Shown piece by piece: positions 43,971-64,000 of a stretch of DNA of 64,000 nucleotides (position 1 is its first letter; every line of letters starts with the position of its first letter). A program made the translations under genes and the position numbers. The notes under the pieces are model-generated. The model made no database searches and was not told the DNA's origin. It saw only the letters and a list, made by a program, of their open reading frames with translations. This DNA is from Candidatus Limnocylindrales bacterium (lineage in GTDB: Bacteria > Chloroflexota > Limnocylindria > Limnocylindrales > CSP1-4), in the NCBI GenBank assembly GCA_050014975.1, contig JBEKCH010000002.1, positions 12,158-76,157 on the forward strand, in the 5' to 3' direction.

Positions 43971-44085
43971 GCGCCGAGCGCTCCGGCCTCCACGTCGCCA
44001 GCGCGGGCCATACGTCCCGAGTCGGCGGGACCATTCGCCCCGCTTCGGCGGCGGTGACTGCATATGCAGGGGGTCCTTCCGCAGT

Positions 44086-44115
44086 TTGACCCCTCCTTTG
44101 GGCCGTTGATACACT
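44086..44115 (+). promoter_or_regulatory. sigma-70/SigA-type promoter candidate for hppA
   Basis: TTGACC (44086-91), an 18-nt spacer ending in TGa, then TACACT (44110-15). It lies about 110 nt upstream of ATG 44226. Confidence 0.4.
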
Positions 44116-44225
44116 CCGCCCGGCCCGAGTATGCAACCACCTATCGGATCCGGGCTCCAAGCCCCAGAGGCGCGCCGTCCCGCCGCGCTCCATCGTGCCG
44201 TCAGAGAAGGAGTCGCTTGCCCCCT

Positions 44226-46442
<2,217 letters not shown>

Positions 46443-48865: not shown

Positions 48866-50449
48866 GTGTATTGGGCCGACGAGCTGGCTGCGGCCGTTTC
48901 GGGCCGCCAGGTGGTCAACGATTCGAAGTCGCCCTCGGGCACCGTACACGTCGGCAGCCTGCGCGGCGTCGTCCTGCACGACGCCATATACCGGGCCTTG
49001 CGCCAGGCGGGGATCGAGGCCTCGTTCCTCTACGGCGTCGACGATATGGACGCCATGGACTCGCAGGCGCTGCTGACCCCCGACGCGGTCGAGCGCTACA
49101 TGGGCGCGCCGTTGTCGCGCGTGCCCGCTCCCGAGGGGAGCGACGCGGTCAACTACGCCCGACATTTCGTGGGCGAGATCTTCTTTCGGATCTTCGAGCC
49201 GCTCGGTATCAAGCCCGAGTTCTACTGGGTCAGCGAGCTATATGCGGCCGGCAGCATGGACCCGTACATCAAGCTGGCCCTCGATCGGGCCGATCGAGTA
49301 CGGGCGATCTACCTGCGCGTGAGCCACGTCGAGCGCTCGAGCGGCTGGCTGCCGATCCAGGTGATCTGCGAGCAGTGCGGCAAGATCGGCACCACGTACG
49401 CCACGGAGTGGAACGGCGAGACGGTCGCGTACAGGTGCCTGCCCGATCTCGTATCGTGGGCTCATGGCTGCGGGCACGAAGGGCGTGTTTCGCCGCTGGG
49501 CGGCCGGGCCAAGCTGCCCTGGAACCTGGAGTGGGCCGCCAAGTGGGGCCTGCTGGGCGTGACGATCGAGGGCTGCGGCAAGGACCTGGCCACGGCCGGC
49601 GGCTCGCGTGACCGCTCGGACGCGATCAGCCGCGAGGTGTTCGAGGTGGAGCCGCCTCGAAACGTCGCCTACGAGTTCCTCAACGTCGGCGGCCGCAAGA
49701 TGTCCACTTCCAGGGGCCAGGGCGCCGCCGCGCATACGATCGCCGAGGTCCTCCCGCCCGAACAGCTGCGCTTCCTCTTCTTGCGCCCGCGGCCCAGCCA
49801 GGTGATCGATTTCGACCCCGAGGGCGAGACGATCCCGCGCCTCTTCGACGAGTTCGATCGGATCGCCGCCGCCACCGCCGGGCGCGAGGTCAAAGGCGAG
49901 TTGCCGGCCGACTACGAACGCCTCTTCGGCTACTCGCTGCTGGGCGAGTCCCCGGACGTTGCCGCGGCCGCCGCCGCATACCGGCCCGCCTTCGCGCATC
50001 TCGCTCTGCTGGCGCAGATCCCCGGCGTGGACATCCCGGAGCGGATGGCGGCCGAGAAGGGCGCACCGCTCAACGAGGTCGAAGCCGCCATCCTGGCCGA
50101 ACGAACCGCCTCGGCCCGCGCCTGGCTGGATACCTATGCGCCCGAGAGAGCGCGTCTCGTCGTCCGCCACGATGCCGTGCCGGAGGAGGTGTCCGCGTTG
50201 GACGCGGTGCAGCGTGCCTACCTCGTCGCGCTGGCCGCCGCCGCAGCAGCGGAGAAGCCCGGCTCCGGCGACGCCTGGCAGGGCCTGATCTTCCGCGTAG
50301 CCGCCGAGAGGGAACTCGCTGCCGGCCGCGCCTTCGGGGCGCTGTACGCCGCTTTCCTCGGCCGAACCAACGGCCCTCGCGCCGGCTGGCTGCTGGCCAG
50401 CCTGGATCCCGCCTTCGTCGTCGGCCGGCTGCGGGCAGCGGCGGGGTAG
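48866..50449 (+). CDS. lysK: lysine--tRNA ligase, class I type
   Basis: The N-terminus reads 'MYWADE'. It has a HIGH-like 'GTVHVGSLRG' and a KMSKS-like 'GGRKMSTSRG'. The protein is about 527 aa and starts 17 nt after greA. Confidence 0.85.
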   Translation: MYWADELAAAVSGRQVVNDSKSPSGTVHVGSLRGVVLHDAIYRALRQAGIEASFLYGVDDMDAMDSQALLTPDAVERYMGAPLSRVPAPEGSDAVNYARHFVGEIFFRIFEPLGIKPEFYWVSELYAAGSMDPYIKLALDRADRVRAIYLRVSHVERSSGWLPIQVICEQCGKIGTTYATEWNGETVAYRCLPDLVSWAHGCGHEGRVSPLGGRAKLPWNLEWAAKWGLLGVTIEGCGKDLATAGGSRDRSDAISREVFEVEPPRNVAYEFLNVGGRKMSTSRGQGAAAHTIAEVLPPEQLRFLFLRPRPSQVIDFDPEGETIPRLFDEFDRIAAATAGREVKGELPADYERLFGYSLLGESPDVAAAAAAYRPAFAHLALLAQIPGVDIPERMAAEKGAPLNEVEAAILAERTASARAWLDTYAPERARLVVRHDAVPEEVSALDAVQRAYLVALAAAAAAEKPGSGDAWQGLIFRVAAERELAAGRAFGALYAAFLGRTNGPRAGWLLASLDPAFVVGRLRAAAG

Positions 50450-50584
50450 CCTCGGCAGCGCAGACCCTTCCGCCGTCGCCCCGGCCGGAAGCCGCGCGCC
50501 CGCGGAGCCGATGCCCGGCTACACTCTGGTTTGAGAAGCAGATGCGGCCCGGCCGCCGGAGGAGACCACGGGAGTGAGAGAGGA

Positions 50585-51907
50585 ATGAGCATCGGGCTGG
50601 CGAGGCTGCGCGAGGAGCCGGATCGGATCCGCCAGGGGGCGATCGACAAGGGCGAGGACCCGACGGTCATCGATCAGGCCCTGGCACTGGAGGGCAGGCG
50701 CCGCCAGTTGCTGAACGACACGGACGAGCTCAAGGCTGAGCGCAACGCCGCGTCCAGGCAGATCGGGGAGGCCATCCGCAAGGGCGCCTCCCCCAACGGC
50801 CCCGAGGTCGCGGTCTTGAGGCAGACCTCGACCGCAGCCGGCACCCGGATCGAGAAGCTGGACGCGGAGCTCGCCGCCACGGAAGCCCAGCTCGAGGAGC
50901 TGCTTCTGCGCATCCCAAACCCCGCGGACCCGGACGTGCCGGTGGGCGATGCCTCGGCCAACAAGGTCGTCCGAACCTGGGGCCAGCCTCTTCCGAAAGA
51001 GTCGACCGTCGATGGTCGTCCCTGGACGCGCCGCCCGCACTGGGAGGTCGCCGAGGACCTTCACATGCTCGACCTGGCTCGTGGGGCCAGGATCACCGGC
51101 TCGGGCTTCCCCGTCTACACTGGCCAGGGGTCGCGGCTCCAGCGCGCGCTGATCGACTTCATGCTGGACATCCACACCGCCGAGCACGGTATGACCGAGA
51201 TCTGGCCGCCGGCCCTGGTCAACGCCGCGTCCGCGCGTGGCACCGGCCAGATCCCCGACAAGGAAGACCTCATGTACGTCGTCCCGCGCGACGAGCTGTA
51301 CCTGGTGCCCACCGCGGAGGTTCCGGTCACGAACCTCCATCGCGACGAGATCTTCGATGCCGACCAGCTGCCGATCCGCTACGCCGCATACTCGCCCTGC
51401 TTCCGCCGCGAAGCCGGGGCAGCGGGCAAGGACACACGCGGCATCCTCCGGGTCCACCAGTTCGACAAGGTCGAGATGGTCTTCTTCGAGAAGCCCGACG
51501 CGTCCGGCGAGGCGCTCGAGTGGCTGACCGGTCGGGCGGAGGTCATCCTCCAGCGCCTCGGCCTGGCCTATCGCGTCCTCCTCATGGCCACCAAGGACAT
51601 GGGCTTCGTGCAGGCCAAGAAGTACGACCTGGAGGTCTGGGCTCCCGGCGTCGAACGCTGGCTCGAGGTCAGCTCCTGCTCGAACTTCCGCGACTACCAG
51701 GCCCGGCGGATGGCGATCCGCTACCGGCCTGAACCCGGCGCCAAGCCCGAGTTCGTGCACACGCTCAACGGCTCGGGGCTGGCGCTGGCCCGAACGGTCG
51801 CCGCCATTCTTGAGAGTTACCAGCAGCCGGACGGCAGCCTGATCATGCCCGATGCGCTGGCGCCGTACATGCATACCCACCGGGTGGACCGCCAGGCCGG
51901 ACTCTAG
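50585..51907 (+). CDS. serS: serine--tRNA ligase
   Basis: It has an N-terminal coiled-coil arm and a class II core ('FRREAGAAGKDTRGILRVHQFDKVE', 'TLNGSGLA'). Confidence 0.92.
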   Translation: MSIGLARLREEPDRIRQGAIDKGEDPTVIDQALALEGRRRQLLNDTDELKAERNAASRQIGEAIRKGASPNGPEVAVLRQTSTAAGTRIEKLDAELAATEAQLEELLLRIPNPADPDVPVGDASANKVVRTWGQPLPKESTVDGRPWTRRPHWEVAEDLHMLDLARGARITGSGFPVYTGQGSRLQRALIDFMLDIHTAEHGMTEIWPPALVNAASARGTGQIPDKEDLMYVVPRDELYLVPTAEVPVTNLHRDEIFDADQLPIRYAAYSPCFRREAGAAGKDTRGILRVHQFDKVEMVFFEKPDASGEALEWLTGRAEVILQRLGLAYRVLLMATKDMGFVQAKKYDLEVWAPGVERWLEVSSCSNFRDYQARRMAIRYRPEPGAKPEFVHTLNGSGLALARTVAAILESYQQPDGSLIMPDALAPYMHTHRVDRQAGL

Positions 51908-52983: not shown

Positions 52984-54525
52984 GTGATGCGAGCTCCCGG
53001 CCGGCACTGGTGGATCCTGGGCGCGATGGTCTTCGCGCTGTTCATGGTCATGCTCGACATGACCGTCGTGACCGTGGCTCTACCCTCGATCCAGCGCAGT
53101 CTGAACGCGAGCGAGCAGAACCTCGAATGGACGGTGAACGCCTTCTCGCTTGCGCTCGCCTCCCTGACCATGCTCGGTGGAAAGCTCGGCGACAGATTCG
53201 GGCGACGACGGCTGTTCCTCGCCGGGCTGGTGATCTTCACCGCCAGCTCCGCGGCGTGCGCGCTCGCGCAAACAGACGGGCAGCTCGTAGCCGGTCGTGC
53301 CGTACAGGGTGTCGGCGGCGCCCTCATGGGGCCGCTCTCGCTGTCGATCATCGTGGCCGCCTTTCCGAGGGATCGCCTGCCCATCGCGCTGGGCATCTGG
53401 GCAGGCGCCTCGGCCGTCGGCCTCGCCATCGGGCCGCTGGTCGGCGGCTTCCTGGTCGACGCGGCCGGCTGGTCGAGCGTCTTCTGGATCAACGTGCCGA
53501 TCGGGGCGGTGGGTCTCTTCGTAACCGCGTGGGTCGTGCCGGAGTCGACAGATCCGACGACGCGGGCGCTCGACCTGCCGGGTACCGCGCTCGCGACCGG
53601 AGGTCTGTTCGCGTTCGTGTGGGGACTCATCGAGACGAGCTCAAACGACTGGAGCTCGCCCGATGTGCTCTCTCGGCTGATTGTCGGGGCGCTGCTGCTC
53701 GCCGTATTCGTCCTTCGCGAGGCCGTCACAGCCGCGCCGATGCTTCCTCTCGGCTTCTTCCGAAGCGTGCGCTTCGGCACGGCGAACATCGTCATGCTCG
53801 CGCTCGGGTTCGCGATGTTCGGCGTGATCTACTTCCTGACGCTTTTCATGCAGAACGTGCAGGGTTACTCGGCGGTCGAGACCGGCATCCGTTCGCTGCC
53901 GCTGACTTTGATGGTCGTCCTCGTGGCGCCCCTGGCCGGCCGCTTCAGCGCGCGATTCGGCGCCCGGCCCTTCGTCGTCGTTGGCATGGTGCTCTGCGCG
54001 GTCGCGATCGTCGGGCTCTCCCGCCTGGCGCCCGCTTCGCCATACGCCGACATGTGGCCCTGGCTCGTCGTCTTCGGCGCCGGCGCCGCACTGACTATGC
54101 CAGTGCTCGCGGCGACGGCGATGGCTAGCTCGGATGCCGCGAAGTCCGGGGTGGCATCCGGGATGCTGAACACGTCGCGCCAGGTCGGTACCGCACTGGG
54201 CGTCGCCGTCCTCGGTTCGATCGGCGCCACGGTCGCCCGCGGCGACTGGGTGAGCTGGACGAGCGGCCTGCCCGCGTCTCTTCAGCCCGGCGCGCATGCT
54301 CTCGAGCCGCTAGTAGTCCTCGGTCGAGGCGGCCAGATCCAGAGCATCGCCTCGCAGACGGTCGGGCCGGCCGGTGGCGCGCTGGCGGCTCAGCAGGCAG
54401 TCCAGGCGTTCAGCCACGGGATGACACAGGCGTTCGTCATCGCGGCTGGCGTGGCGCTGGTCGCCGCCGCCGTGGCCGGCATCGGTCTCGCCCAGCGTCG
54501 CCGTGCCGCCGCTGCCGTTCAGTGA
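52984..54525 (+). CDS. MFS transporter, DHA2 (EmrB/QacA-like, 14-TM) family
   Basis: It has 'MLDMTVVTVALPSIQ' and 'GGKLGDRFGRRRLF'. The protein is 513 aa. Confidence 0.85.
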   Translation: MMRAPGRHWWILGAMVFALFMVMLDMTVVTVALPSIQRSLNASEQNLEWTVNAFSLALASLTMLGGKLGDRFGRRRLFLAGLVIFTASSAACALAQTDGQLVAGRAVQGVGGALMGPLSLSIIVAAFPRDRLPIALGIWAGASAVGLAIGPLVGGFLVDAAGWSSVFWINVPIGAVGLFVTAWVVPESTDPTTRALDLPGTALATGGLFAFVWGLIETSSNDWSSPDVLSRLIVGALLLAVFVLREAVTAAPMLPLGFFRSVRFGTANIVMLALGFAMFGVIYFLTLFMQNVQGYSAVETGIRSLPLTLMVVLVAPLAGRFSARFGARPFVVVGMVLCAVAIVGLSRLAPASPYADMWPWLVVFGAGAALTMPVLAATAMASSDAAKSGVASGMLNTSRQVGTALGVAVLGSIGATVARGDWVSWTSGLPASLQPGAHALEPLVVLGRGGQIQSIASQTVGPAGGALAAQQAVQAFSHGMTQAFVIAAGVALVAAAVAGIGLAQRRRAAAAVQ

Positions 54526-54568: not shown

Positions 54569-54994
54569 TCAGGTTGTCGCCCTTCCCGTCCTGTCGCCCT
54601 TGCCGTCGTACCAGCTGCCGAAGTGCCTCGCATAGAGCTCGTCCAGCAGAGTGTCCGCCTCGTCGGCCAGCGCGCCGAACGCGCCGACGAGCCAGCGTCC
54701 CTCAGCGGACACGGTTGAGCCTCCGCCACCTGCGCCGCCGGTCCGTCGCTCGAGCAGCGTGACGCCGAGGTGCGCCTCCGCCCGATGCACGATATGCCAG
54801 GCCTTGCTGTATGCCAGGCCCATGTCGGAGGCGGCCCGGCGGAGCGATCCCGTCGCCTCGACCCGGATGAGCAGCTCGCGGATCCCTCTCCCAAAGACAG
54901 GAATACCCCGGTCCTGCAGCCAGATTCGCTGGGCGGGACGGATACCTGCAGGACCTGTTTCTACGACGGGTGCGCCTGAGCTGGCTCCGGCCAT
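54569..54994 (-). CDS. ModE-N-terminal-domain-like winged-helix regulator (no Mop domains)
   Basis: 'GSLRRAASDMGLAYSKAWHIVHRAEAHLGVTLLERRTGGAGGGGS' parallels the E. coli ModE N-domain ('...ISYKSAWDAIN...ATGGKGGGGA'). Confidence 0.6.
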   Translation of the reverse strand: MAGASSGAPVVETGPAGIRPAQRIWLQDRGIPVFGRGIRELLIRVEATGSLRRAASDMGLAYSKAWHIVHRAEAHLGVTLLERRTGGAGGGGSTVSAEGRWLVGAFGALADEADTLLDELYARHFGSWYDGKGDRTGRATT

Positions 54995-55078
54995 CGACCA
55001 CTCCTGCCGAGCGTTATCCTCAGAAAACGATAACGCTCCGCAGCGGCAGCCGTCGGCCGAGTTCGCCAGCGAAGCCGT

Positions 55079-56041
55079 CTATCGGCCGGTCCGAGGCCCG
55101 GCCGAAACGGGCGCCTCTTGGGCAGGTGCGACCGCCTGTCGGGCTCCCGGGTCGGTGGCGAGAGAGACGACGACGATACCGAGGAACGTGGTCGCGGCGC
55201 CGGCAAAGTCCAGCAACGTGAGCGGCTCGCCCAGCAGGAGCCAGGACGACGCGAGGCCCACGACGGGCACGGCCAGGAAGCCCATCGTCGTTGCCAGCGG
55301 ACTGAGCGCTCGCGAGATCGACTGGCTCAGCCAGAAGGCGAGCGCGGTGGCGAGCGGGCCGCTGTAGAGCACGGCGGCGACGGCACTGGGCTCCCAGTGG
55401 ATCGGCCGACCGACTTCCAGCAGGAGCGCGGCGGCCACAAGCGGCACGAGCGCCACCAGCAGCTGCCAGGGCATGAGGTCGAGCGGTGTCCCGCGCCACT
55501 CATGGCGCCGGATATGGATCGTGGTCGCCGCCCAGAGCACGGCGCTGACGATGAGTCCCGCGCTGCCGAGCAGCTGCCCGGAGGACTGCCAGTCGATGGC
55601 CTGCGGGTTCAACAGCAGGCCGATCCCGGCCAGACCAATCAGCAGCCCGGCAACCTGCCGCCCGGCGCCACCGGCGCGCAGTGTTGGGAGTTGGATGAGC
55701 GCCACCCAGAGGGGCATCGTGTAGACCAGGATCGACGACCGGCCGGCGGAGATCAGCGGCAGGGCAAAGTTCATGAGCGCGATCCCGGCGGCCATCTGGC
55801 CGATGCCCACGGACAGGACGACCGGGATGTCGTGGCGGGAAGGCAGCCGCAGGCCGCGCCGCGCGGCCAGCACGGCCACGATCACGGCCAGCCCGGTCGC
55901 AACCCGAAGGGTGCCGTAGGTGAACGGGGGCAGGTCTCGCAGACCGATCTTCGCCACCGGCCAATGCACGCCCCAGACCAGCGCCAGGCAGGCCAGCAGC
56001 AAGTAGGGCCGTGCTCGCATGCCGCCCAGTCGCGCTCGCAT
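55079..56041 (-). CDS. EamA/DMT-family transporter
   Basis: It has about 10 TMs in two EamA-type halves. The protein is 320 aa. Confidence 0.8.
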   Translation of the reverse strand: MRARLGGMRARPYLLLACLALVWGVHWPVAKIGLRDLPPFTYGTLRVATGLAVIVAVLAARRGLRLPSRHDIPVVLSVGIGQMAAGIALMNFALPLISAGRSSILVYTMPLWVALIQLPTLRAGGAGRQVAGLLIGLAGIGLLLNPQAIDWQSSGQLLGSAGLIVSAVLWAATTIHIRRHEWRGTPLDLMPWQLLVALVPLVAAALLLEVGRPIHWEPSAVAAVLYSGPLATALAFWLSQSISRALSPLATTMGFLAVPVVGLASSWLLLGEPLTLLDFAGAATTFLGIVVVSLATDPGARQAVAPAQEAPVSAGPRTGR

Positions 56042-56054
56042 CCCGTCTGGCCGC

Positions 56055-56807
56055 CTATGCGCCGCTCGCGACCAGGCGCTCGATGGTCAGCGGCGTGCCC
56101 GGTCGCAGGACCGGCACGGTCGTGCTGACGTCGAGCCGGGCGCAGAACGGGACGTCGTCCCCGGCGCCCAGCCCCGTGACGAGCCGGCCGGAGATGGAAT
56201 CCCGGAGCGGGGTCAGCAGGTCCGGATAGCTCGCCTGCAGCTGGACCGCGGCCTCGGCCGCCTCGGTCAGGCTGACGTCGGCGCCACGCGACCGGAGCGC
56301 TTCGCTCAGCCGCTCGACGAAGACGCCGGCCGTCACGCCGTCGTCGAGGGCGAACCGGCCGAGGGTGCCGGCACACACGATGCCGACCCGCGCGCCCATC
56401 GGCTCGGCCAGCTGGACCGCTGCCTCGGCGCAGGCACGGGCGTTCAGCAGGCACCCGACAAGCGTCGCAGGCGCGCCCGCCACCCAGCTCAGCACCTTCG
56501 TCCCGTTCGACGTGGACAGGATGACGACGCGTCCCCTGACGGCGTCGGCGCTAGCCAGCGCGGCGGGGGAGTTGTCGAAGTCGAAACCGGGCGGCGCGTA
56601 GCCGTGCCGCTCTCCGGCCAGCAGCCCGTCGTGCTGACGCGCCAGGCGTCGCGCCGATTGCAGGCCGGCGGTGACGTAGAGTCGCGAGCAGCCCAGGTCC
56701 AGGAGCGTGGTGATCGTGGAGCTCGCCCGCAGCACGTCGATGACGATGCAGACCGTGCGGCTCCAGACGCGTGCCTCGGACGGCACCAGCGCCACGTCTA
56801 TCTCCAT
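56055..56807 (-). CDS. comB: 2-phosphosulfolactate phosphatase family protein (ComB-like)
   Basis: It has 'VIDVLRASSTITT', 'LAGERHGYAPPGFDFDNSP', 'LSTSNGT' and 'IVCAGTLGRFALDD'. Confidence 0.75.
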   Translation of the reverse strand: MEIDVALVPSEARVWSRTVCIVIDVLRASSTITTLLDLGCSRLYVTAGLQSARRLARQHDGLLAGERHGYAPPGFDFDNSPAALASADAVRGRVVILSTSNGTKVLSWVAGAPATLVGCLLNARACAEAAVQLAEPMGARVGIVCAGTLGRFALDDGVTAGVFVERLSEALRSRGADVSLTEAAEAAVQLQASYPDLLTPLRDSISGRLVTGLGAGDDVPFCARLDVSTTVPVLRPGTPLTIERLVASGA

Positions 56808-56938
56808 CGACCTGGGCCTCCGTTTTGCGCGGCCCGCCCGCGACGCACGTCGCGTGCGACGGCCGGGCTACAGATAGGGCGGCGGGGCGCCAGTCCCTCT
56901 GGGCCCCGCCGCCCTGGTTTGAACGGCTTCGGCTCGAC

Positions 56939-57787
56939 CTACGCCACGGGGGCGGGGGCGAGCTTCAGCTGCTTGAACTCCTTGACCTGGCCGCGGATCG
57001 CCCGCTCGGTCGGCAGGCGCTCGATGCTCGAGGCACCGAAGAAGCCCTGCACGCCCGGCATCCGCGCGAGCGCCGTCCCGACGTTTTCCGGTTCGTCGAA
57101 TGGGCCGCCGTGGCAGAGCACGAGGATGTCCTTGCGGACCGAGCGACCGGCCTCGGTGACCGTCATGACCCGGTCGATCGCCTGGTCGAGCGACAGGGCG
57201 ACCCCGGCGCCGATCGTCCCGGCCGTGGTCAGGCCGACGTGGGCGACCAGCTGGTCGGCGCCGGCTTTCGCCATGGCCTTCGCGTCGTCGGCATTGAAGA
57301 CGTAGGGCGAGGTGAACAGGTCGATCTCGTGGGCCAGCCGGATCGCCTCGATCTCCTTGTCGTAGCCCATGCCGGTCGCTTCCAGGTTGGCCCGGAAGTT
57401 GCCGTCGATGAGCCCGACGGTCGGGAAGTTCTGGACGCCGTCGAAGCCTATGTCCTTGAGCTGCTTGAGGAAGACCGGCATCAGCCGGAACGGGTCGGTC
57501 CCGTTGATGCCGGCGAGGACCGGCACGTCCTTGACGACGGGCAGGACCTCGGAGGCCATCTCGACGACGATGCCGTTGGCGTCGCCGTAGGCGAGCAGGC
57601 CGGCGAGGGAGCCCCTGCCGGCCATCCGGTAGCGTCCCGAGTTGTAGATGATGATCAGGTCGCAGCCGCCGGCTTCGGCCATCTTGGCCGAGATGCCGGT
57701 GCCGGCACCGCAGCCGACGATCGGCCTGCCGGTCGCGGCCTGGGCACGGAGTCGCCGTACCACCTCGGCGCGAGGAATGAATGGCAT
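56939..57787 (-). CDS. phosphoenolpyruvate-hydrolase-like TIM-barrel protein (homologue of the C-terminal half of plant Tm-1)
   Basis: It has '[50 protein letters not shown]'. Confidence 0.7.
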
Positions 57788-57829
57788 GGCCGCTCCTCCT
57801 TGTTGGGTTGTCGCAGTTCTCTGGTACGC

Positions 57830-59044
57830 CTAGCGCTTGGCTATCATCGCCTGCAGGCGATCGACCATAGCGTCGGCAAAGGCGGGGTCGTTGATGGCGA
57901 GGTCGAGCTCGACAAGCTCGACCTTCGAGCGGTCGAGGTTGGCGCGGATCGCGCCGAACAGCGCAGCATCCGCCACGGGGTCGTGGAACGGCATGCCCTC
58001 GACGTCGATCGCGCTCACGCCCTTGAGCGGGACGAACAGCGCGGTGGGTCCGGTGGTCTTGTTGAGCTTCTTGGCGATGATCTCGCCGAGCTTCGCGCAC
58101 TCCTCCGGCGTCGTGCGCATGAGCGTCACTTCGGGGTTGTGGATGTAGATGTTCCGCTTCTCGAACTTCTCCGGAAGGGTGTCACGAGGGCCGAAGTTGA
58201 CCATGTCCAGGGCGCCGAGCGAGACGATCTGGGGAATGCCGGTCCGGCCGGCGGCGTCAAGGCGCTCCGGTCCGGCCGACAGGATGCCGCCGACCAGCTC
58301 GTCGCACCATTCGGTGGTCGTGACGTCCGCCACCCCATCGAAGACGCCGTCGGAGATGAGCGCCTCGAATGACCGGCCGCCGCTTCCGACTGCGTGGAAG
58401 ACGAGCACTTCGTAGCCGCTCGACTCCAGCCGCGCCCGGACGCGGTCGAGGCACGGCGTCGTGACGCCGAACATCGTCGCACCGATCAGCCGCTTCTCCT
58501 CAGCCTTCGGCATCGTCTGCTCGACCATGCCGCCGATGGCTCCGGCGGCGTTGGCGAAGATGCGACGCGAGAGGCGGTTCAGCCCGGACACGTCGACGAC
58601 GGAGTGCATCATCGTGATGTCCTTGACGCCGACGTACGGGCCTACGTTGCCCGAGGCCATGGTCGACACGATGACCTTGGGGATGCCTACTGGGAGCGCC
58701 TGCATGGCTGTGCTCCCGATGGACGTGCCGCCCGAGCCGCCCATGCTGATGACGCCATCGAACTTGCCTTCGGCGAGGAACTTCACCGCGAGCGCCCGCG
58801 CACCCAGGCCCATGGTCTCGATGGCGTGGCCCCGGTCCCGCTTCTCGCGGAGCTCGGCGAGCGAGCCCCCGCCGGCCTCGGCGGTTAGGTCGGCGGGGCT
58901 GTCGGGCTTGAACGTCGGCTCGCCCAGGATCCCGGCGTCCAGCACGAAAGTGTTGAGCCCGCGAGCGCGAATCAGGTCGCGGACGTAGGCGTACTCTCGA
59001 CCCTTGGTATCCAGCGTGCCGATCAACAAGACGGTCTTCGCCAT
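57830..59044 (-). CDS. UPF0261 / Tm-1-like ATP-binding protein
   Basis: The N-terminus reads 'MAKTVLLIGTLDTKGREYAYVRDLI'. The protein is 404 aa and lies 42 nt upstream of its usual TIM-barrel partner. Confidence 0.75.
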   Translation of the reverse strand: MAKTVLLIGTLDTKGREYAYVRDLIRARGLNTFVLDAGILGEPTFKPDSPADLTAEAGGGSLAELREKRDRGHAIETMGLGARALAVKFLAEGKFDGVISMGGSGGTSIGSTAMQALPVGIPKVIVSTMASGNVGPYVGVKDITMMHSVVDVSGLNRLSRRIFANAAGAIGGMVEQTMPKAEEKRLIGATMFGVTTPCLDRVRARLESSGYEVLVFHAVGSGGRSFEALISDGVFDGVADVTTTEWCDELVGGILSAGPERLDAAGRTGIPQIVSLGALDMVNFGPRDTLPEKFEKRNIYIHNPEVTLMRTTPEECAKLGEIIAKKLNKTTGPTALFVPLKGVSAIDVEGMPFHDPVADAALFGAIRANLDRSKVELVELDLAINDPAFADAMVDRLQAMIAKR

Positions 59045-59377
59045 AGCCTCTCCTTCACGCGGTTCGGATGCGGGCCCATTGGCCCGCCCGCTGCAGATGC
59101 TCCGACCGTTCGCCCGTCGCCGCCGAGCGCATCACACATCGGAAATCGGGGCGGCGACTGCGGAACGGCCGCTTCAGATTGGCTGCCGCTGGAGGACCGG
59201 ACTCGCGCGTGCAACCGGCAACCGCGAGCCTGTCCGGCACGGTACGAACGACCCGGGTCCCTCCTGGCGAGAGACCCAACCATCACGAACGCTTCTCGCC
59301 TCCGGGGCGCCTCGGCCGGGTTTCGGCCGCTCGCCGCCGCCCCGTTCGATGGACGGCGTCATGCCCCTGTGGCGAGT

Positions 59378-60346
59378 TCATCTCTGCGCGGCCACCTCCT
59401 TTCCCGCGGACCGGCAGATCGCTGCGACCTCCTCCGCCACGCGGGCCGCGGACAGGCCGTACAGCTCGAGCAGCGCTGCATTGGATGCCGACTCGCCGTA
59501 GACGTCCTGCATGCCGAGTCGCTTCACGAAGGTCGGGCGGTGCTCGGAGAGGGCCTCGGCTACGGCGCCGCCGAGGCCGCCGATGACGGTGTGCTCTTCC
59601 ACGGTGACCACGGACCCGGTCCGGTCCGCGGCTGCGACGATCGCCGCCACGTCGAGTGGCTTGATCGTCGGCACGTGGAGCACGTGCGCGTCGATGCCCC
59701 GTGCGGCGAGCAGCTCCGCGGCGTCGACGACGCGCGGCGTCTGCGTACCGGTGCTGATAAGCGTCACGTCGCGACCCTCGCGGACCACGACGGCTCGGCC
59801 GAATTCGAACGAGTACGAGCCGTCGAAGAGCCGCTGCGTCGCGTCACGCACCAGCCGGACGTAGACCGGCCCGTGGTATGAGGCGCACCAGCGCAGGGCC
59901 TGAGCCGCCTCGACGTCGTCGGCGGGACAGACGGTGACCATGCCCGGCATCGCCCGCATGATCGAGACGTCGTCCACGATGAGGTGCGTCTTGCCGGTCA
60001 CGCCCGTGAAGAGCCCGGCGTAGCCCGGAGTGATCTTCACGTTGAGTCCCGTCTGGGCAATGAGGACGCGGATCTGGTCCAGGGGCCGGACCACCGCGAA
60101 GGCGACGAACGTGCTGACGAATGGGATCAGACCCATCGTCGCCAGGCCGGCGGCTACGCCCAGCATGTTCTGCTCGGCGATGCCCATCTGGAGATACCGA
60201 TCCGGGTGGCGGTGCTCGAAGATGTCGGCCCTGGTGGAGCTGCCCACGTCGGCGTCGAGCATGACGATGCGGGGGTCGGTGTCGGCCAGCTCGCTGACAG
60301 TTTCGCCGAAGACCTCGCGCATGGCGCGACCCAGGGGCAGTGTCAT
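59378..60346 (-). CDS. transketolase, C-terminal (pyrimidine-binding) subunit of a split enzyme
   Basis: It has 'MGIAEQNMLGVAAGLATMG'. The ATG overlaps the N-subunit stop (ATGA). Confidence 0.85.
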   Translation of the reverse strand: MTLPLGRAMREVFGETVSELADTDPRIVMLDADVGSSTRADIFEHRHPDRYLQMGIAEQNMLGVAAGLATMGLIPFVSTFVAFAVVRPLDQIRVLIAQTGLNVKITPGYAGLFTGVTGKTHLIVDDVSIMRAMPGMVTVCPADDVEAAQALRWCASYHGPVYVRLVRDATQRLFDGSYSFEFGRAVVVREGRDVTLISTGTQTPRVVDAAELLAARGIDAHVLHVPTIKPLDVAAIVAAADRTGSVVTVEEHTVIGGLGGAVAEALSEHRPTFVKRLGMQDVYGESASNAALLELYGLSAARVAEEVAAICRSAGKEVAAQR

Positions 60347-61230
60347 CGCGCGCCTCCATCCGTGGCGGCAACGGTTTCGCCCAGGTCGGCCATCGCCGTG
60401 GCGAATTCGTCCGTGGTGAGCGGCCGCGTGTGCCAGTAGTAGTGGCCCTCCATGAACGAGACGCCCTTGCCCTTGACGGTGTGGGAGATCACGACCGTCG
60501 GCCGGCCGTCGCCTTGGCGCGCGCGCTCGAGGACGGCCACGACGTCGGGCATGCGGTGGCCGTCGACCTCCAGGACGCGCCAGCCGAAAGCAGTCCACTT
60601 GGCCACGAGCTCGCCCGGCGTCTCTGGTGGCAGGCGGCCGTCGGGTCCGTCCCCGGCCCAGCCGTACTGCTGGAGCTTGTTGTGGTCGACGATCGCGATG
60701 AGGGTGTCGAGACCGTAGCGGGCCGCGACCATGGCCGCCTCCCAGACCTCGCCTTCCTGGCACTCCCCGTCGCCGAGCATGACGTACGTTCGGACGTCGC
60801 CCCGGCCGGTCAGGCGTGCTCCGAGGGCGATCCCGACTGCGGCCGAGATGCCCATGCCGAGCGATCCGGTGGACATGTCCAGCCCGGGCAGCTTGGTCAT
60901 ATCCGGATGCCCTTGCAGCCGCGTCCCGGCTGAATCGAAGGTCGCGAGCTCCTCGACGGGGAAGTAGCCACGGAGGGCGAGCGCCGCATACAACCCGATC
61001 GACGAGTGGCCCTTGGAGAGAACGAACCGGTCGCGATCCGGCCAGCCGGGCTCCTCGGGCCGTATTCGCATGACGCAGAAGTACAGGGCGGCGAGCATGT
61101 CGGCCGCGGAGAGCGGCCCGCCCAGGTGCCCGGCCTTGGCTTCGTTCACGGCGCGAATGATCTCCACGCGGATGCGCCTTGCGGTTTCCTCCAGCCGGCT
61201 GATCTCCGCGTCCTGCGTTGTGGTGGTCAT
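60343..61230 (-). CDS. transketolase, N-terminal (ThDP diphosphate-binding) subunit of a split enzyme
   Basis: It has 'GHLGGPLSAADMLAALYF', 'SKGHSSIGLYAAL' and 'GDGECQEGEVWEA'. Confidence 0.85.
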   Translation of the reverse strand: MTTTTQDAEISRLEETARRIRVEIIRAVNEAKAGHLGGPLSAADMLAALYFCVMRIRPEEPGWPDRDRFVLSKGHSSIGLYAALALRGYFPVEELATFDSAGTRLQGHPDMTKLPGLDMSTGSLGMGISAAVGIALGARLTGRGDVRTYVMLGDGECQEGEVWEAAMVAARYGLDTLIAIVDHNKLQQYGWAGDGPDGRLPPETPGELVAKWTAFGWRVLEVDGHRMPDVVAVLERARQGDGRPTVVISHTVKGKGVSFMEGHYYWHTRPLTTDEFATAMADLGETVAATDGGAR

Positions 61231-61505
61231 GACGCTTCCTCTGGAGCGCAGCCCGCGCCCCGGAGGACGGGGCACGGCCGCGGGCGAGAATTGACCGACG
61301 AAGCGCGCGGATCGAAACCGTCCGACGCCACGTCACGGAAGCCGTAGCTGGGGCCGGGAATGAAGACGTCTGGCTCCGGCATCGGATTCCTCGTGCTCAT
61401 GACGGAAACCGAGGTCGGGACGGGAGGTTCTCGGCAGTCGTAATCAACAATCGATCCTACTCCTCAACGCGCTCGACCGAAAGCCGGCTCGGTCGGAGTG
61501 AGCCA

Positions 61506-61976
61506 TCATGTCCAGGCCTCTCTCACCGGAAGGGACGCCAGGGCGCGGACCACGAACTCGATCTGGCTCATGCACGCGACTCGCCAGATCCCGCTGTCGA
61601 TGAATGCCCGATGCTGCTCCGGAGTGCGGATCTCGCGGCCGACCAGCGCCCGGCAGTCGACTGCGCCGTGCTCGGCCCGGAAGTCGTCCATGAGGCGGGC
61701 GATGACCTCGCGGGCCAGGCGCTTGGCCCGTGCGTGACTCCTGAACCGGCGCGCGGCCAGGAGTCCCACGGCCAGCGAGGCTCCGGAGATGGCGCCGCAG
61801 ACGCCGCCGCTGTAGGCGACGCCCCCGTTGAGGGCCATCGCCGCCGAGGGGTCCAGGGGATCGGGCAGGCCGAAGGCCTCCTTGAGAACCATGAAGGTCG
61901 TCTCGGCGCAACCGAATGAGTTGGACTCGTCGAGGAAGAGGGTCCTCGCTCGAGCTGCTGCTTCGTCAGCGGTCAT
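61506..61976 (-). CDS. C_GCAxxG_C_C-family (putative redox-active) protein
   Basis: It has 'FGCAETTF', 'GGVCGAISGA' and later Cys residues ('DCRAL', 'VACMS'). The protein is 156 aa. Confidence 0.75.
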   Translation of the reverse strand: MTADEAAARARTLFLDESNSFGCAETTFMVLKEAFGLPDPLDPSAAMALNGGVAYSGGVCGAISGASLAVGLLAARRFRSHARAKRLAREVIARLMDDFRAEHGAVDCRALVGREIRTPEQHRAFIDSGIWRVACMSQIEFVVRALASLPVREAWT

Positions 61977-62064
61977 CTCCGGCGGCTCTCCCCGTTGCTG
62001 GCATTGCCTGGTCCCGAGCCCGAGCCCAAGCAGCCCCTGGCTGCCGACTCGGACCTGCGACCGG

Positions 62065-62433
62065 TCAACCCTTCGTCTTCTTCTCGTAAGAGCCGGGCAC
62101 GACCGGCGGCGTGAAGACGCAGAGAAGTTCGAGCGGCGCCGGGCCGTCGCACTCGGTGGCGTGGAACGTCCCGGCCGGGATGAAGACCGCAACGCCGGCC
62201 TCGAGCTCGGCCGGGCCCGCGTCGCAGATGAGCCTGCCCCGTCCGGAGAGGCAGTAGACCGTCTCCTCTGCGGCCTCGTGGACGTGGCCCGTGGGCCGCG
62301 CGCCCGGCTCGTAGACGGAGACGCCCATCGAGAGGCGCCTGGTCGGGGCGGTCTGAGGGCCTATGTAGGCGTGCCAGTTGCGACCGGGCATGGGCGTGAT
62401 CGCGGTCTCGGCCCGGCTCATTCGCGTGAACAT
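62065..62433 (-). CDS. cupin domain protein
   Basis: It has 'TGHVHEAAEETVYCLSGRG' and 'VFIPAGTFHATE'. The protein is 122 aa. Confidence 0.7.
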   Translation of the reverse strand: MFTRMSRAETAITPMPGRNWHAYIGPQTAPTRRLSMGVSVYEPGARPTGHVHEAAEETVYCLSGRGRLICDAGPAELEAGVAVFIPAGTFHATECDGPAPLELLCVFTPPVVPGSYEKKTKG

Positions 62434-62519
62434 GACGTCCTCGCTTCGTCGCGCGGCGTGTCCATCCGCCGTTCTGGCCGACCTCAGCAGGTCGGATGCT
62501 CGATGTCGTTGCGTGCCCG

Positions 62520-64000
62520 TCAGGCCCGGCCGGCGGCGGCCTCGTCGGAGCGCCGGCGACCGGACAGCCGGATGAGGTCCTCGTGCAGCTCGAACCAGAC
62601 GCTGTGGTAGCTGTCGACGCGCGGCGAGGCCACGAACCGCTGGTCGCCGTCCCGGGCGTGGGCCAGGGCGCGATCAAGCCGTTCGCGGTAGCCGGCCATC
62701 CGTCCGAGCTTGTTGCCGAGCGGGGTAAGCCAGTCGACGACCTCGCCGTGGAGAGCGCCGAGCTGCTCGAGTATGGAGGCGTCGTAGGCGGCGTCGGCAT
62801 GGTCATTGAAGACCTGCTCGCCGCCGACGTCGCGGAGCTGCCAGGCTGTGACCAGGTCCTTCAGCCTGCAGTCGAGCAGGAGGAAGCGATCCAGGGCGGC
62901 CGCGCAGGTCTCCTCGCCTCCGCTGCGGTCGCGATCCGCGGCGAACACGTCGAGGGCGCGCAACCTGCCCTCTCCCGTCAGCCGGAACGAGCCCGCCACA
63001 ACCTCCGCCAGGCCTTCGGCCACGAAACCGTCCACGAAGGGCCGGACCTGTTCGGCAGTGCTGGACAGCGTGGTGGCCAGGCCCTCGGGCGTGACCAGGC
63101 CCTTGATGAGGAGACCCCGGAGCACGTCGTCGGCCGTCAGCTCGGCAGTTGTCGGTGCCTCGGCCGGCGCCTCCGCGGCCGGCTCACCTTCGGCTTCGCC
63201 GATCGGGATGCCGAGCTCCTTCGCCCAGGCCAGCAGCGTGGCCGCCTCCGGCACGATGGCACAGCTGCCGTCGACCTCACCGGCGAATATCTCGCCGGTG
63301 CTGCCGTCGATGGTTATGACGTCGCCGCACGGGAAGGTCCTCCCGCCGACGGCCATACCGGTCTCCGCCACCTCGATGGCGCTCGCGCCGACGACCGCGG
63401 GGATTCCCCAGCCGCGGGCGACCACGGCCGCGTGGCTGGCCAGCCCGCCGCGGGCGGTGAGGACCCCGGCGGCGCTGGCCATGCCGTGGACGTCGTCCGG
63501 CGACGTCTCGGATCGGACGAGGATGACGGTCCGACCCGCCTGGGCGATCGCCTGGGCCTCGTCGGGCGAGGTCACGATCTCGCCGTGAGCCACCCCCGGT
63601 GAGGCGGGCAGACCGACGGCCAGCGGCTCGGGCCCGCCTTCGCGGCGGATCGAGGTCAGAGGCGGATGAGCGAGCTGGGCGGCCACGCGCCTGACCGCTT
63701 CCTCACGGGTCAGCGGGAAGGCAGGATCCTGGGCCATGTCGACCGCCATCCGCAGTGCGGCCTGGGGGCTTCGCTTGCCGACGCGGACCTGGAGCATCCA
63801 GAGCTTGGCCTGCTCGATCGTGAACTCGATATCGCAGAGGTCGGCGTAGTGGCGCTCGAGCTGGGAGGAGTAGTCCCGCAGCTGGCGGCCCACGGCCGGC
63901 AGCCGAGTGTCAAGCACAGAAACGGGCTCGGTCTGGTGAGTGCCCGACACCACGTCCTCGCCCTGGGCGTTGAACAGGACGTCGCCGTACAGCGTTGGCT
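62520..64000 (-). CDS. pyruvate,phosphate dikinase-like protein (ATP-grasp + phospho-His swivel domains) with a non-canonical C-terminal ~210 aa; 5' end lies outside the window
   Basis: The frame is open to the window edge ('...LFNAQGEDVVSGTHQTEP'). It has the phospho-His motif 'LTARGGLASHAAVVARGWGIPAVVG' and 'GDVITIDGSTGEIF'. Where the PEP/pyruvate TIM barrel should begin, the sequence diverges ('...LRGLLIKGLVTPEGLATTL...'). Confidence 0.8.
   Translation of the reverse strand, partial: PTLYGDVLFNAQGEDVVSGTHQTEPVSVLDTRLPAVGRQLRDYSSQLERHYADLCDIEFTIEQAKLWMLQVRVGKRSPQAALRMAVDMAQDPAFPLTREEAVRRVAAQLAHPPLTSIRREGGPEPLAVGLPASPGVAHGEIVTSPDEAQAIAQAGRTVILVRSETSPDDVHGMASAAGVLTARGGLASHAAVVARGWGIPAVVGASAIEVAETGMAVGGRTFPCGDVITIDGSTGEIFAGEVDGSCAIVPEAATLLAWAKELGIPIGEAEGEPAAEAPAEAPTTAELTADDVLRGLLIKGLVTPEGLATTLSSTAEQVRPFVDGFVAEGLAEVVAGSFRLTGEGRLRALDVFAADRDRSGGEETCAAALDRFLLLDCRLKDLVTAWQLRDVGGEQVFNDHADAAYDASILEQLGALHGEVVDWLTPLGNKLGRMAGYRERLDRALAHARDGDQRFVASPRVDSYHSVWFELHEDLIRLSGRRRSDEAAAGRA

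Follow-up and report, generated by a model that had tools for sequence, protein, structure and literature searches.

Gene content and conservation of the locus

The 64,000-nucleotide (nt) stretch of contig JBEKCH010000002.1 from a Candidatus Limnocylindrales bacterium that was analysed here, referred to below as the window, ends in ten genes that all lie on the minus strand (54569-64000). In the direction of transcription they encode a protein related to pyruvate phosphate dikinase (PPDK), a small cupin, a C_GCAxxG_C_C family protein (GCAxxG), the N- and C-terminal subunits of a split transketolase (TK-N and TK-C), a UPF0261 protein, a PEP_hydrolase-like TIM barrel, a ComB-family protein, an EamA transporter and a ModE-like regulator (Table 1). 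An earlier note, made from the sequence alone, had listed these ten genes. The open reading frames (ORFs) and direct reading bear out that list, the gaps of 86, 88, 42 and 13 nt given in it and the ATGA overlap at 60346-60343, where the ATG of TK-C lies over the TGA of TK-N, and profile searches with Pfam and NCBIfam confirm each of its family identifications. The locus is a real, conserved, multi-module one, the nearest analogues of which are the sulfo-TK/TAL clusters, the apiose transketolase, VadK/Rv1126c, MarK/Tm-1 and ComB. The reading that we prefer, and put forward tentatively, is that three recurring modules in varying combinations form one catabolic island, and not one pathway centred on phosphoenolpyruvate (PEP).

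The remaining spacers of the cluster measure 275 nt between GCAxxG and TK-N, 333 nt between TK-C and UPF0261, 131 nt between the barrel and ComB, and 84 nt between EamA and the regulator. Downstream, the cluster is bounded by a convergent MFS gene (52984-54525), while its upstream boundary falls outside the window: in contigs that encode an identical cupin the cluster continues on the same strand past the window end. The order in these contigs is a transaldolase (360 aa), an aldehyde dehydrogenase (475 aa), a short-chain dehydrogenase/reductase (SDR, 261 aa), an MBL hydrolase (298 aa) and a full-length, 711-aa version of the PPDK-like gene, after which come the other nine genes. The locus is thus a single-strand island of at least 14 genes, ten of which are held by the window. 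About a dozen Limnocylindria assemblies preserve its complete gene order at protein identities of 54-97%, which indicates that the arrangement is more than chance and has been maintained over considerable divergence. The UPF0261 protein of the window is itself 85-93% identical to proteins of Candidatus Limnocylindrales/Limnocylindria metagenome-assembled genomes (MAGs) from fens, peat and soils. Small differences occur at the downstream end of the island, since the ModE-like gene is called at 84 aa without a helix-turn-helix (HTH) match, and EamA at 307 aa, in three near-identical contigs (L161, L162 and L164), and at 141 and 320 aa, respectively, in a fourth (L163) and in the window; these could reflect strain variation or a frameshift.

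Gene neighbourhoods were collected with flanks of up to 10 kb as four sets, about 300 loci overall: 80 loci centred on UPF0261, 80 on TK-C, 80 on the C-terminal domain of the PPDK-like protein and 79 on a second type of split transketolase. The first three sets were scored for partners by tblastn and ORF clustering, and the fourth was left out of this scoring. The TK-C-centred loci were further divided by identity to the TK-C of the window into 54 loci at ≥59% and 26 loci at 51-58%, the latter serving as an internal control.

Table 1. Positions of the features discussed, numbered along the window
Feature	Position	Strand	Support
VadK-type truncated PPDK, 3' two-thirds: ATP-grasp end, phospho-His swivel domain (GGLASHAAVVARG), C-terminal extension (predicted)	62520..64000	-	Pfam, NCBIfam
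C-terminal 210-aa domain of the PPDK-like protein: winged helix + helical domain	62523..63152	-	homologues, AlphaFold, fold search
Cupin, small single-domain, 122 aa	62065..62433	-	Cupin_2 E 3e-17
C_GCAxxG_C_C family protein, 156 aa	61506..61976	-	Pfam, NCBIfam
Split transketolase, N-terminal subunit (ThDP/PP-domain)	60343..61230	-	Transketolase_N E 8e-54; NF004559 288 bits
Split transketolase, C-terminal subunit (Transket_pyr + Transketolase_C)	59378..60346	-	Pfam, NCBIfam
Invariant motif of 23 nt, GCGGCAGCCAATCTGAAGCGGCC, ~125 nt before the UPF0261 start (333-nt spacer)	59167..59189	-	conservation
Tm-1-type UPF0261 (UPF0261 + UPF0261_C), 404 aa, putative ATP-dependent small-molecule kinase	57830..59044	-	Pfam, NCBIfam, alignment
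PEP_hydrolase-like TIM barrel, 282 aa	56939..57787	-	PF09370 E 4e-123; Mll9387 structure 2P10 E 8e-106
Divergent ComB-family protein (2-ph_phosp; 2-phosphosulfolactate phosphatase fold)	56055..56807	-	PF04029 195 bits
EamA/DMT-superfamily transporter, 320 aa	55079..56041	-	Pfam, NCBIfam; kept after ComB in close relatives
ModE-N-type HTH (HTH_1) regulator without Mop/TOBE, 141 aa	54569..54994	-	Pfam, NCBIfam
Helicase, H+-pyrophosphatase, two putative tRNA synthetase ORFs	15632-20353, 44064-46442, 48866-50449, 50531-51907	+	

The cupin-linked split transketolase

The two transketolase genes satisfy what is expected of a split-chain enzyme, being an adjacent pair that covers the PP, Pyr and C domains and that resembles a solved, functional transketolase. 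TK-N contains a thiamine diphosphate (ThDP) motif, LGDGECQEG...IAIVDHN, of the form GDG-x(25-30)-N, and the cofactor-activating glutamate of the GIAEQ signature is present in the Pyr domain of TK-C (MGIAEQNM). The best match of TK-C in the PDB is the split-chain transketolase of Carboxydothermus (6YAJ, E 4e-80).

Within the first module, the most constant companion of this enzyme is the cupin: 46 of the 54 loci in the ≥59% group contain it, and in 44 of 52 it immediately precedes TK-N on the same strand. Chloroflexota, Acidimicrobiia, other Actinomycetota and Dormibacterota are represented in this group. Further partners within it are GCAxxG (19 loci), transaldolase (16), UPF0261 (12), aldehyde dehydrogenase (12), SDR (10), MBL (10), the barrel (8), the PPDK-like gene (7) and ComB (5), and the aldehyde dehydrogenase stands immediately downstream of the transaldolase in 9 of the 16 loci that carry the latter. 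By comparison, the 26 control loci contain a single transaldolase and no cupin, GCAxxG, aldehyde dehydrogenase, SDR, MBL, PPDK-like, UPF0261, barrel or ComB gene. A Liv-type ABC importer is co-directional with the cupin-transketolase unit in about 20 loci, and a GntR/FadR regulator adjoins it in about 30. Two Acidimicrobiia loci (L122 and L123) display the order GCAxxG-cupin-TK-SDR-MBL; in L123 the MBL gene is followed by E1 alpha/beta genes and a tartrate-dehydrogenase-like gene, and the opposite strand carries a PPDK-like gene together with a PTP-family phosphatase.

The transaldolase upstream in the island scores far below all housekeeping models of NCBIfam (101 bits versus a cut-off of 367) and keeps a VK(L)PAT motif, which we take to be the site of the Schiff-base lysine. 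The aldehyde dehydrogenase passes the NCBIfam model of CoA-acylating methylmalonate/malonate-semialdehyde dehydrogenase (MMSDH; 604 bits versus 448), and the SDR is nearest to gluconate 5-dehydrogenase and KduD among the NCBIfam models. PDB searches returned no close characterised relative for the cupin, the MBL hydrolase or the binding protein of the ABC importer.

A clue to the chemistry of this transketolase clade comes from five sister enzymes, 51-58% identical to the TK-C of the window, that are encoded inside inositol-type operons of MAGs labelled Thermomicrobiales, Chloroflexia, Sphaerobacteraceae, Verrucomicrobiae and Steroidobacteraceae (L135, L137, L140, L142 and L156). In the lower pathway of myo-inositol degradation, the cupin isomerase IolB yields a 5-keto-2-deoxy sugar acid, which the IolC kinase and the IolJ aldolase convert into a C3 compound and malonate semialdehyde, the latter being oxidised by the MMSDH IolA. 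One of the sister operons (L140, 6340-13794) reads iolD-iolE-tktN-tktC-iolG-iolG-iolB and is accompanied by a sugar ABC system; it contains no iolC, iolJ or iolA. Most simply, the transketolase of such operons replaces the kinase and aldolase steps on 5-dehydro-2-deoxy-gluconate, and the operons suggest a transketolase-dependent variant of inositol catabolism, a pathway for which our literature search found no description. The presence of sister enzymes in iolD-E-tkt-G-B operons implies that this transketolase clade handles keto-deoxy sugar acids in other contexts.

The island shares with the inositol pathway the logic of a cupin isomerase, a cleavage step and an MMSDH, the family to which its own aldehyde dehydrogenase belongs. 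On the other hand, the window cluster lacks IolG, IolE, IolD, IolB, IolC and IolJ, its 122-aa cupin falls outside the KduI/IolB family, and cleavage in the island would proceed by transketolase/transaldolase transfer and not by a kinase and an aldolase. Another comparison is offered by the apulose-4-phosphate transketolase AptAB, which Carter and colleagues are said to have described in 2018 as part of D-apiose catabolism. Going by that description, it too is of the split type and serves a specialised sugar route from within a transporter-linked catabolic operon, but no homologues of apiose isomerase or apulose kinase are seen at the island.

A further formal parallel is found in the sulfo-TK and sulfo-TK/sulfo-TAL clusters (SqwGH, SqvD, SqwI), which also use a split transketolase and a transaldolase in a specialised route that needs no sugar kinase (PMC12890257, PMC11659671). 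In these clusters, as in the island and its relatives, a small isomerase-type gene accompanies each carbon-carbon transferase, and the gene set includes an aldehyde dehydrogenase and a transporter. The differences, however, are considerable. By its annotated gene content the island has no sulfoquinovosidase, no SqvD/SqwI-type isomerase, no sulfoacetaldehyde reductase and no TauE-type exporter; its relatives carry the Liv-type importer, and it holds extra kinase, barrel and phosphatase genes. The hosts also differ, being anaerobic Firmicutes or Spirochaetes for the sulfo-TK/TAL clusters and soil or peat Chloroflexota and Actinomycetota for the island.

A truncated PPDK-like protein and a UPF0261/barrel pair

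The second module consists of the PPDK-like gene, the reading frame of which is open to the window edge (to 63998) and is complete, at 711 aa, in the near-identical contig L161. Its identity as a canonical PPDK was rejected on the ground that a PEP domain is missing: only the tail of PPDK_N and the mobile PEP-utilizers domain were detected, with no PEP/pyruvate TIM barrel (PEP-utilizers_C), and the alignment to PPDK ends near residue 530 of 874, having covered the ATP-grasp and phospho-His swivel domains. In agreement with this, the full-length protein of a near-identical contig fails the canonical model TIGR01828 (555 bits versus a cut-off of 843) and passes NF004531/PRK05878 (506 bits versus 456), the NCBIfam model for the family of Mycobacterium tuberculosis Rv1127c. 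The histidine motif of the swivel domain reads GGLASHAAV. A split dikinase, in which the PEP_hydrolase-like barrel would serve the PPDK-like protein, was also rejected as the principal explanation, given that the barrel is partnered with UPF0261 in 71 of the 80 UPF0261-centred loci and the PPDK-like gene is found in 16.

A better model is provided by VadK (Rv1127c) of Mycobacterium tuberculosis (Mtb), a PPDK-derived protein reported in 2026 to autophosphorylate on a histidine with ATP/Mg and to regulate flux through the methylcitrate cycle (EMBO Rep 2026, PMC13400623). Its operonic partner, Rv1126c, improves the solubility of VadK and is washed off only by 2 M NaCl (PMC13400623). We read the PPDK-like gene as encoding a putative autophosphorylating histidine kinase of the VadK type, not a PEP-making dikinase, and the window protein as a probable fusion of such a kinase to its partner module. 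Both proteins are truncated PPDKs with ATP-grasp and phospho-His swivel domains, no PEP/pyruvate barrel and a partner module of about 200 aa (PMC13400623). They differ in that this module is fused at the C-terminus of the Chloroflexota protein and is a separate gene in Mtb, and in that the neighbours are SDR-MBL and cupin-TK genes in the former and methylcitrate-cycle genes in the latter.

For the fused C-terminal domain, 1307 homologues were recovered. AlphaFold models the domain with a pLDDT of 96. Its first ~75 residues form a DtxR/MarR-like winged helix, the sole part that matches PDB folds, and the fold search gave no PDB match at E <0.001 for the helical part, which carries invariant His, Asp and Glu residues. 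Many of the homologues come from actinomycetes, where they stand alone as proteins of about 200 aa with hypothetical or MarR-like annotations; the fused domain was compared with these. One of them, in Mycobacterium sp. (L321, 2432-7373), lies in an operon with a truncated PPDK, a GntR regulator, acyl-CoA dehydrogenases and an enoyl-CoA hydratase. The domain and the truncated PPDK are encoded by separate neighbouring genes in Nocardioides and in proteobacterial loci (L310, L311 and L316), and are fused in Nocardia.

The fused VadK-like gene also stands directly before, or overlaps, a Y_phosphatase3 gene of the PTP family in Nocardia sp. (L305, 8327-11372) and in Acidimicrobiia (L123, 16029-19384). 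This pairing is conserved across Actinomycetota and recurs in some Limnocylindria loci, and the adjoining phosphatase gene in Nocardia and Acidimicrobiia would fit a regulatory phospho-switch. Among the 80 loci centred on the PPDK-like protein, the most frequent partners are a 582-aa PpsA/PigC-like swivel protein (43 loci), MBL (42), SDR (40) and a P-loop protein (38), followed by an IolM/Tdh-like zinc dehydrogenase (26), transaldolase (17), UPF0261 (6) and transketolase (5-6). Several of these belong to a conserved Limnocylindria set that adjoins the cupin-transketolase unit or the PPDK-like gene (L107, 385-8321, and similarly in about 40 of the loci L241-L320). The set comprises the 582-aa PpsA/PigC-like protein, which ends in a phospho-His swivel domain, a GntR regulator, a CoxM-like subunit, a fused CoxS-CoxL molybdenum hydroxylase, a cyclase-family hydrolase and a protein of about 300 aa with a P-loop-like GGESNHGKS motif and no Pfam or NCBIfam match.

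The third module is built around UPF0261 and the barrel, adjacent to each other in 71 of the 80 UPF0261-centred loci, which are distributed over Chloroflexota, Rhodothermales, Verrucomicrobiota, Omnitrophota, Gemmatimonadota and Firmicutes. The earlier note held that this pair, the two halves of plant Tm-1, had no assigned bacterial function. For UPF0261 as such that statement is outdated: the Novosphingobium member MarK was reported in 2025 to phosphorylate acetovanillone at its phenolic hydroxyl, turning ATP into ADP, which constituted the first catalytic function for UPF0261 (PMC12624787). It still holds for the barrel-partnered subtype, as a search of the literature on UPF0261, PF09370 and Mll9387 gave only the MarK and Tm-1 papers, and none with a function for the PF09370/Mll9387 barrel.

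The UPF0261 protein of the window matches Tm-1 (PDB 3WRY) at E 4e-85 and MarK (PDB 9MPY) at E 1e-72, and shares with both the UPF0261 fold family, the DTK motif and two catalytic-site histidines. It retains the ATP-site and catalytic residues of MarK, namely D12-T13-K14 (DTK), H217 and the histidine of IHNPE, the last two corresponding to His219 and His304 of MarK. The acetovanillone pocket of MarK, on the contrary, is replaced (F283 to M, I285 to N and H348 to I), and the pocket motif GALDMVNFGP is identical to that of Tm-1. Since the ATP-site and histidine residues are kept and the MarK pocket residues are replaced, the window protein is probably competent as a kinase, belongs to the Tm-1-type subfamily that is partnered with a barrel and would act on a more polar substrate. 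The genomic context agrees with this assignment, UPF0261 and the barrel lying 42 nt apart as a Tm-1-type pair. Unlike MarK, the window protein is thus partnered with the barrel, as in the tomato Tm-1 fusion, and not with AcvCDEF carboxylase/phosphatase genes.

The commonest partner of the pair outside Limnocylindria is a second type of cupin, about 32% identical to that of the window (L054, L059-L061, L064, L069-L078 and others). In Rhodothermales the pair neighbours ThuA-like, large dehydrogenase and sulfatase genes, and in Anaerolineales an ABC transporter and a xylose-isomerase-like TIM-barrel gene. The second cupin and these neighbours hint at a carbohydrate-related role of the pair.

ComB follows the UPF0261/barrel pair in 16 of the 80 loci, all of them, judged by record title, in Limnocylindria or related Chloroflexota-type MAGs. 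ComB proper is the 2-phosphosulfolactate phosphatase of coenzyme M biosynthesis. The window protein belongs to the same Pfam family and misses every ComB equivalog cut-off (TIGR00298, 142.7 versus 175; NF010700, 160 versus 332); no ComA-type gene occurs among the cluster annotations and no ComA, ComC or ComDE near the window homologue, which is linked to the UPF0261/barrel pair instead. The regulator gene is found in 5 of the 80 UPF0261-centred loci. Its product matches the N-terminal domain of ModE alone, at 53 bits against the TIGR00637 cut-off of 98.5, and is therefore not classed as ModE.

Two of the general proposals of the earlier note can be judged from these results. The phosphoryl-transfer theme is real, in that the cluster encodes a His-phosphotransfer protein, a member of an ATP-dependent kinase family and a member of a phosphatase family. 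The PEP chemistry attributed to three of its genes, on the other hand, proves nominal: the PPDK-like protein has no PEP domain, "PEP hydrolase-like" is a fold label, and ComB stays below its equivalog cut-offs.

The 333-nt spacer upstream of UPF0261 contains the invariant motif GCGGCAGCCAATCTGAAGCGGCC, which is single-copy in the window, where none would be expected by chance. Its 15-nt core is exact in 10 related loci, with varying flanks. An RNA structure in the region upstream of UPF0261 received no support from covariation (covariation term +0.91), and for this reason the motif is more likely an operator or promoter element, for which it is a candidate. A riboswitch or leader RNA in the spacers was rejected on the same absence of covariation and on the lack of a relevant Rfam match; nothing in the cluster reached the Rfam gathering score, and the spacers gave nothing relevant at E up to 1. 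No terminator-like site was seen on the coding strand inside the cluster, the terminator and sigma-70 promoter scans being uninformative at 70% GC.

Elsewhere in the window, a Pfam scan of large ORFs identified a 1573-aa Lhr-type helicase and a membrane H+-pyrophosphatase, and showed no second transketolase among the ORFs scanned. On a reading of their translations, two other ORFs probably encode tRNA synthetases, one a lysyl enzyme of the class I type and the other a seryl enzyme.

A proposed modular catabolic island and its alternatives

The gene identities, domain architectures and co-occurrence of modules described above are observations, from which we infer each enzymatic step and the substrate in the following scheme. 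The first module (cupin, GCAxxG and split transketolase, with the upstream transaldolase, MMSDH and SDR-MBL genes) would act as a specialised ketol-transfer unit. An imported compound would be oxidised or hydrolysed by the SDR and the MBL hydrolase, and the product would be isomerised by the cupin to a ketose-type donor, a role suggested for a cupin directly upstream of the transketolase by analogy with the iol operons that carry a transketolase. Transketolase and transaldolase would then transfer a C2 or C3 ketol (or dihydroxyacetone) unit to glyceraldehyde-3-phosphate, yielding xylulose-5-phosphate or fructose-6-phosphate, and the leftover acid-aldehyde would be oxidised to an acyl-CoA. If a substrate class has to be guessed, a 5-keto or deoxy-keto sugar acid or an intermediate derived from a cyclitol seems the best candidate; the pairing of transaldolase with MMSDH, the gluconate-5-dehydrogenase-like SDR and the GntR/FadR regulators are further hints in that direction. 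The second module, the VadK-type kinase with its winged-helix/helical partner, most likely would tune the flux or expression of the neighbouring pathway. The third, consisting of the UPF0261 kinase, the barrel, the ComB-family phosphatase and EamA, might constitute a branch in which a polar small molecule is phosphorylated, transformed and dephosphorylated. A more specific proposal, and one that we regard as doubtful, is that Limnocylindria and Acidimicrobiia possess a kinase-independent transketolase/transaldolase pathway for a keto-sugar-acid or cyclitol-derived compound, coupled to a VadK-type flux kinase and to a UPF0261/barrel/ComB unit that would process one of its products. Such a pathway would be a non-sulfonated analogue of the sulfo-TK/TAL routes, related to the transketolase variant of inositol catabolism, and would give the barrel-partnered UPF0261 family, conserved from bacteria to plants, its first metabolic context. 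The earlier note knew of no described pathway that combines these parts, and none was matched here either.

Several observations weigh against the scheme. For the cupin, which lacks a close characterised relative, lyase or dioxygenase activity is conceivable in place of isomerase activity, and no importer is encoded within the window. A non-exhaustive scan with the second transketolase of the MAG MGMJ01 (see below) returned few Limnocylindria and gave no such second enzyme for the closest relatives. That the fused C-terminal domain is homologous to Mtb Rv1126c itself is an inference. The partners most often found with the PPDK-like gene elsewhere, among them the PpsA-like swivel protein, the P-loop protein and the CoxLMS-type molybdenum hydroxylase, are not in the window and hint at non-sugar chemistry. 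Finally, the modules are not obligately linked, transketolase accompanying the PPDK-like gene in 5-6 of 80 loci and UPF0261 accompanying transketolase in 12 of 54, so that a shared substrate is not proven.

This last point is the core of the first alternative, namely that the modules are functionally independent and have been brought together by the dynamics of genomic islands in Limnocylindria, with no common substrate: a transketolase/transaldolase catabolic unit, a VadK-type regulator that would serve SDR-MBL or other genes, and a Tm-1-type kinase unit with an unrelated role. We consider this rather unlikely. It is favoured by the fact that single modules are far more frequent than their combinations, by the occurrence of the UPF0261/barrel pair without a transketolase in most of its 80 loci and in many phyla, by the equally low frequency (6 of 80) of UPF0261 beside the PPDK-like gene, and by the 275- and 333-nt spacers, which together with the motif upstream of UPF0261 suggest separate transcription units. 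However, all the genes lie on one strand, on which there is no terminator-like site, and the partners are absent, a single transaldolase apart, from the 26 control loci. In addition, the modules re-associate: four loci (L082, L090, L094 and L103) carry the barrel-UPF0261 pair divergently from a transaldolase-...-cupin-TK array although their UPF0261 is only 50-57% identical to that of the window. That they do so in various orders and orientations points to a functional relationship, without making them a single obligate linear pathway. The question raised in the earlier note, whether these families co-occur across phyla, is answered in part: the GCAxxG-cupin-TK-SDR-MBL set occurs with the PPDK-like gene in both Acidimicrobiia and Limnocylindria, and the cluster as a whole is not one obligate unit.

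A second alternative assigns both the split transketolase and the transaldolase a plain housekeeping role in the non-oxidative pentose-phosphate pathway, the neighbouring genes being unrelated. All the catalytic motifs of a transketolase are indeed in place, the nearest solved structure is that of a functional split-chain enzyme, and a transaldolase resides in the same cluster. Moreover, the closest relatives yielded no second transketolase in the non-exhaustive scans. Nevertheless, the coupling of this transketolase to the cupin (44 of 52), to the ABC importer and to GntR regulators marks a catabolic context, and the score of the transaldolase (101 bits against 367) is far from the housekeeping models. 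The Limnocylindria-type MAG MGMJ01 (L116 and L146) contains, besides a cupin-linked transketolase, a second split transketolase adjoining EPSP synthase, and the cupin-transketolase unit also occurs in Actinomycetota, members of which normally carry a full-length tkt. A housekeeping function is, for these reasons, improbable.

It is also quite improbable that the locus belongs to a system for a phenolic or N-heterocyclic compound, in which a CoxLMS-type enzyme would hydroxylate the substrate, the PpsA-like and PPDK-like proteins would act as a dikinase of the phenylphosphate-synthase type, and transketolase and transaldolase would handle a side chain or a ring-cleavage product. The idea draws on the frequency of the PpsA/PigC-like (43 of 80) and P-loop (38 of 80) partners, with CoxM and CoxS-L genes between them and a cyclase-family hydrolase nearby, on the PpsA-like gene of the closest relatives (L241 and L242), which precedes the transaldolase by about 3 kb, and on MarK, AcvAB and HpeHI, which show that both kinase families are able to phosphorylate phenols. 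None of the PpsA-like, P-loop or Cox genes, however, is found inside the 64-kb window, the pocket of UPF0261 is polar and Tm-1-like rather than MarK-like, the recurrent neighbours include no carboxylase or ring-cleavage dioxygenase, and the transketolase, transaldolase, MMSDH and SDR content points to carbon skeletons of the sugar type.

The linear route of the earlier note, in which a dikinase or kinase would activate, by PEP-type chemistry, a phosphorylated, possibly sulfonated C3-C6 compound that is then cleaved by transketolase, dephosphorylated by ComB and exported by EamA, is very improbable, for although kinase, transketolase, phosphatase and transporter genes do share one strand, the bifurcated sulfo-TK/sulfo-TAL clusters with their paired isomerases give it a formal precedent and a ComB family member acts on phosphosulfolactate, the PPDK-like protein lacks a PEP/pyruvate domain and falls in a regulatory kinase family, the ComB homologue scores below its equivalog cut-offs with no ComA partner in the cluster, and the modules are separable. 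Its sulfonate variant was rejected, as the annotations of the cluster and of its recurrent neighbours show no sulfonate-specific gene, be it a GH31 sulfoquinovosidase, a TauE sulfite/sulfonate exporter or a desulfonating enzyme, these families not having been searched for directly.

If the modular catabolic island that we prefer is confirmed, it would add a new branch to the specialised transketolase/transaldolase routes known from sulfoquinovose and apiose, in abundant, uncultured bacteria of peat and soil. It would likewise extend the VadK class of PPDK-derived regulatory kinases beyond Actinomycetota, in a form fused to the partner protein. The Tm-1-type UPF0261/TIM-barrel pair of bacteria and plants would acquire a tractable genomic context. 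As for the iol operons in which a split transketolase takes the place of iolC and iolJ, the variant pathway that they suggest is directly testable in cultured relatives.

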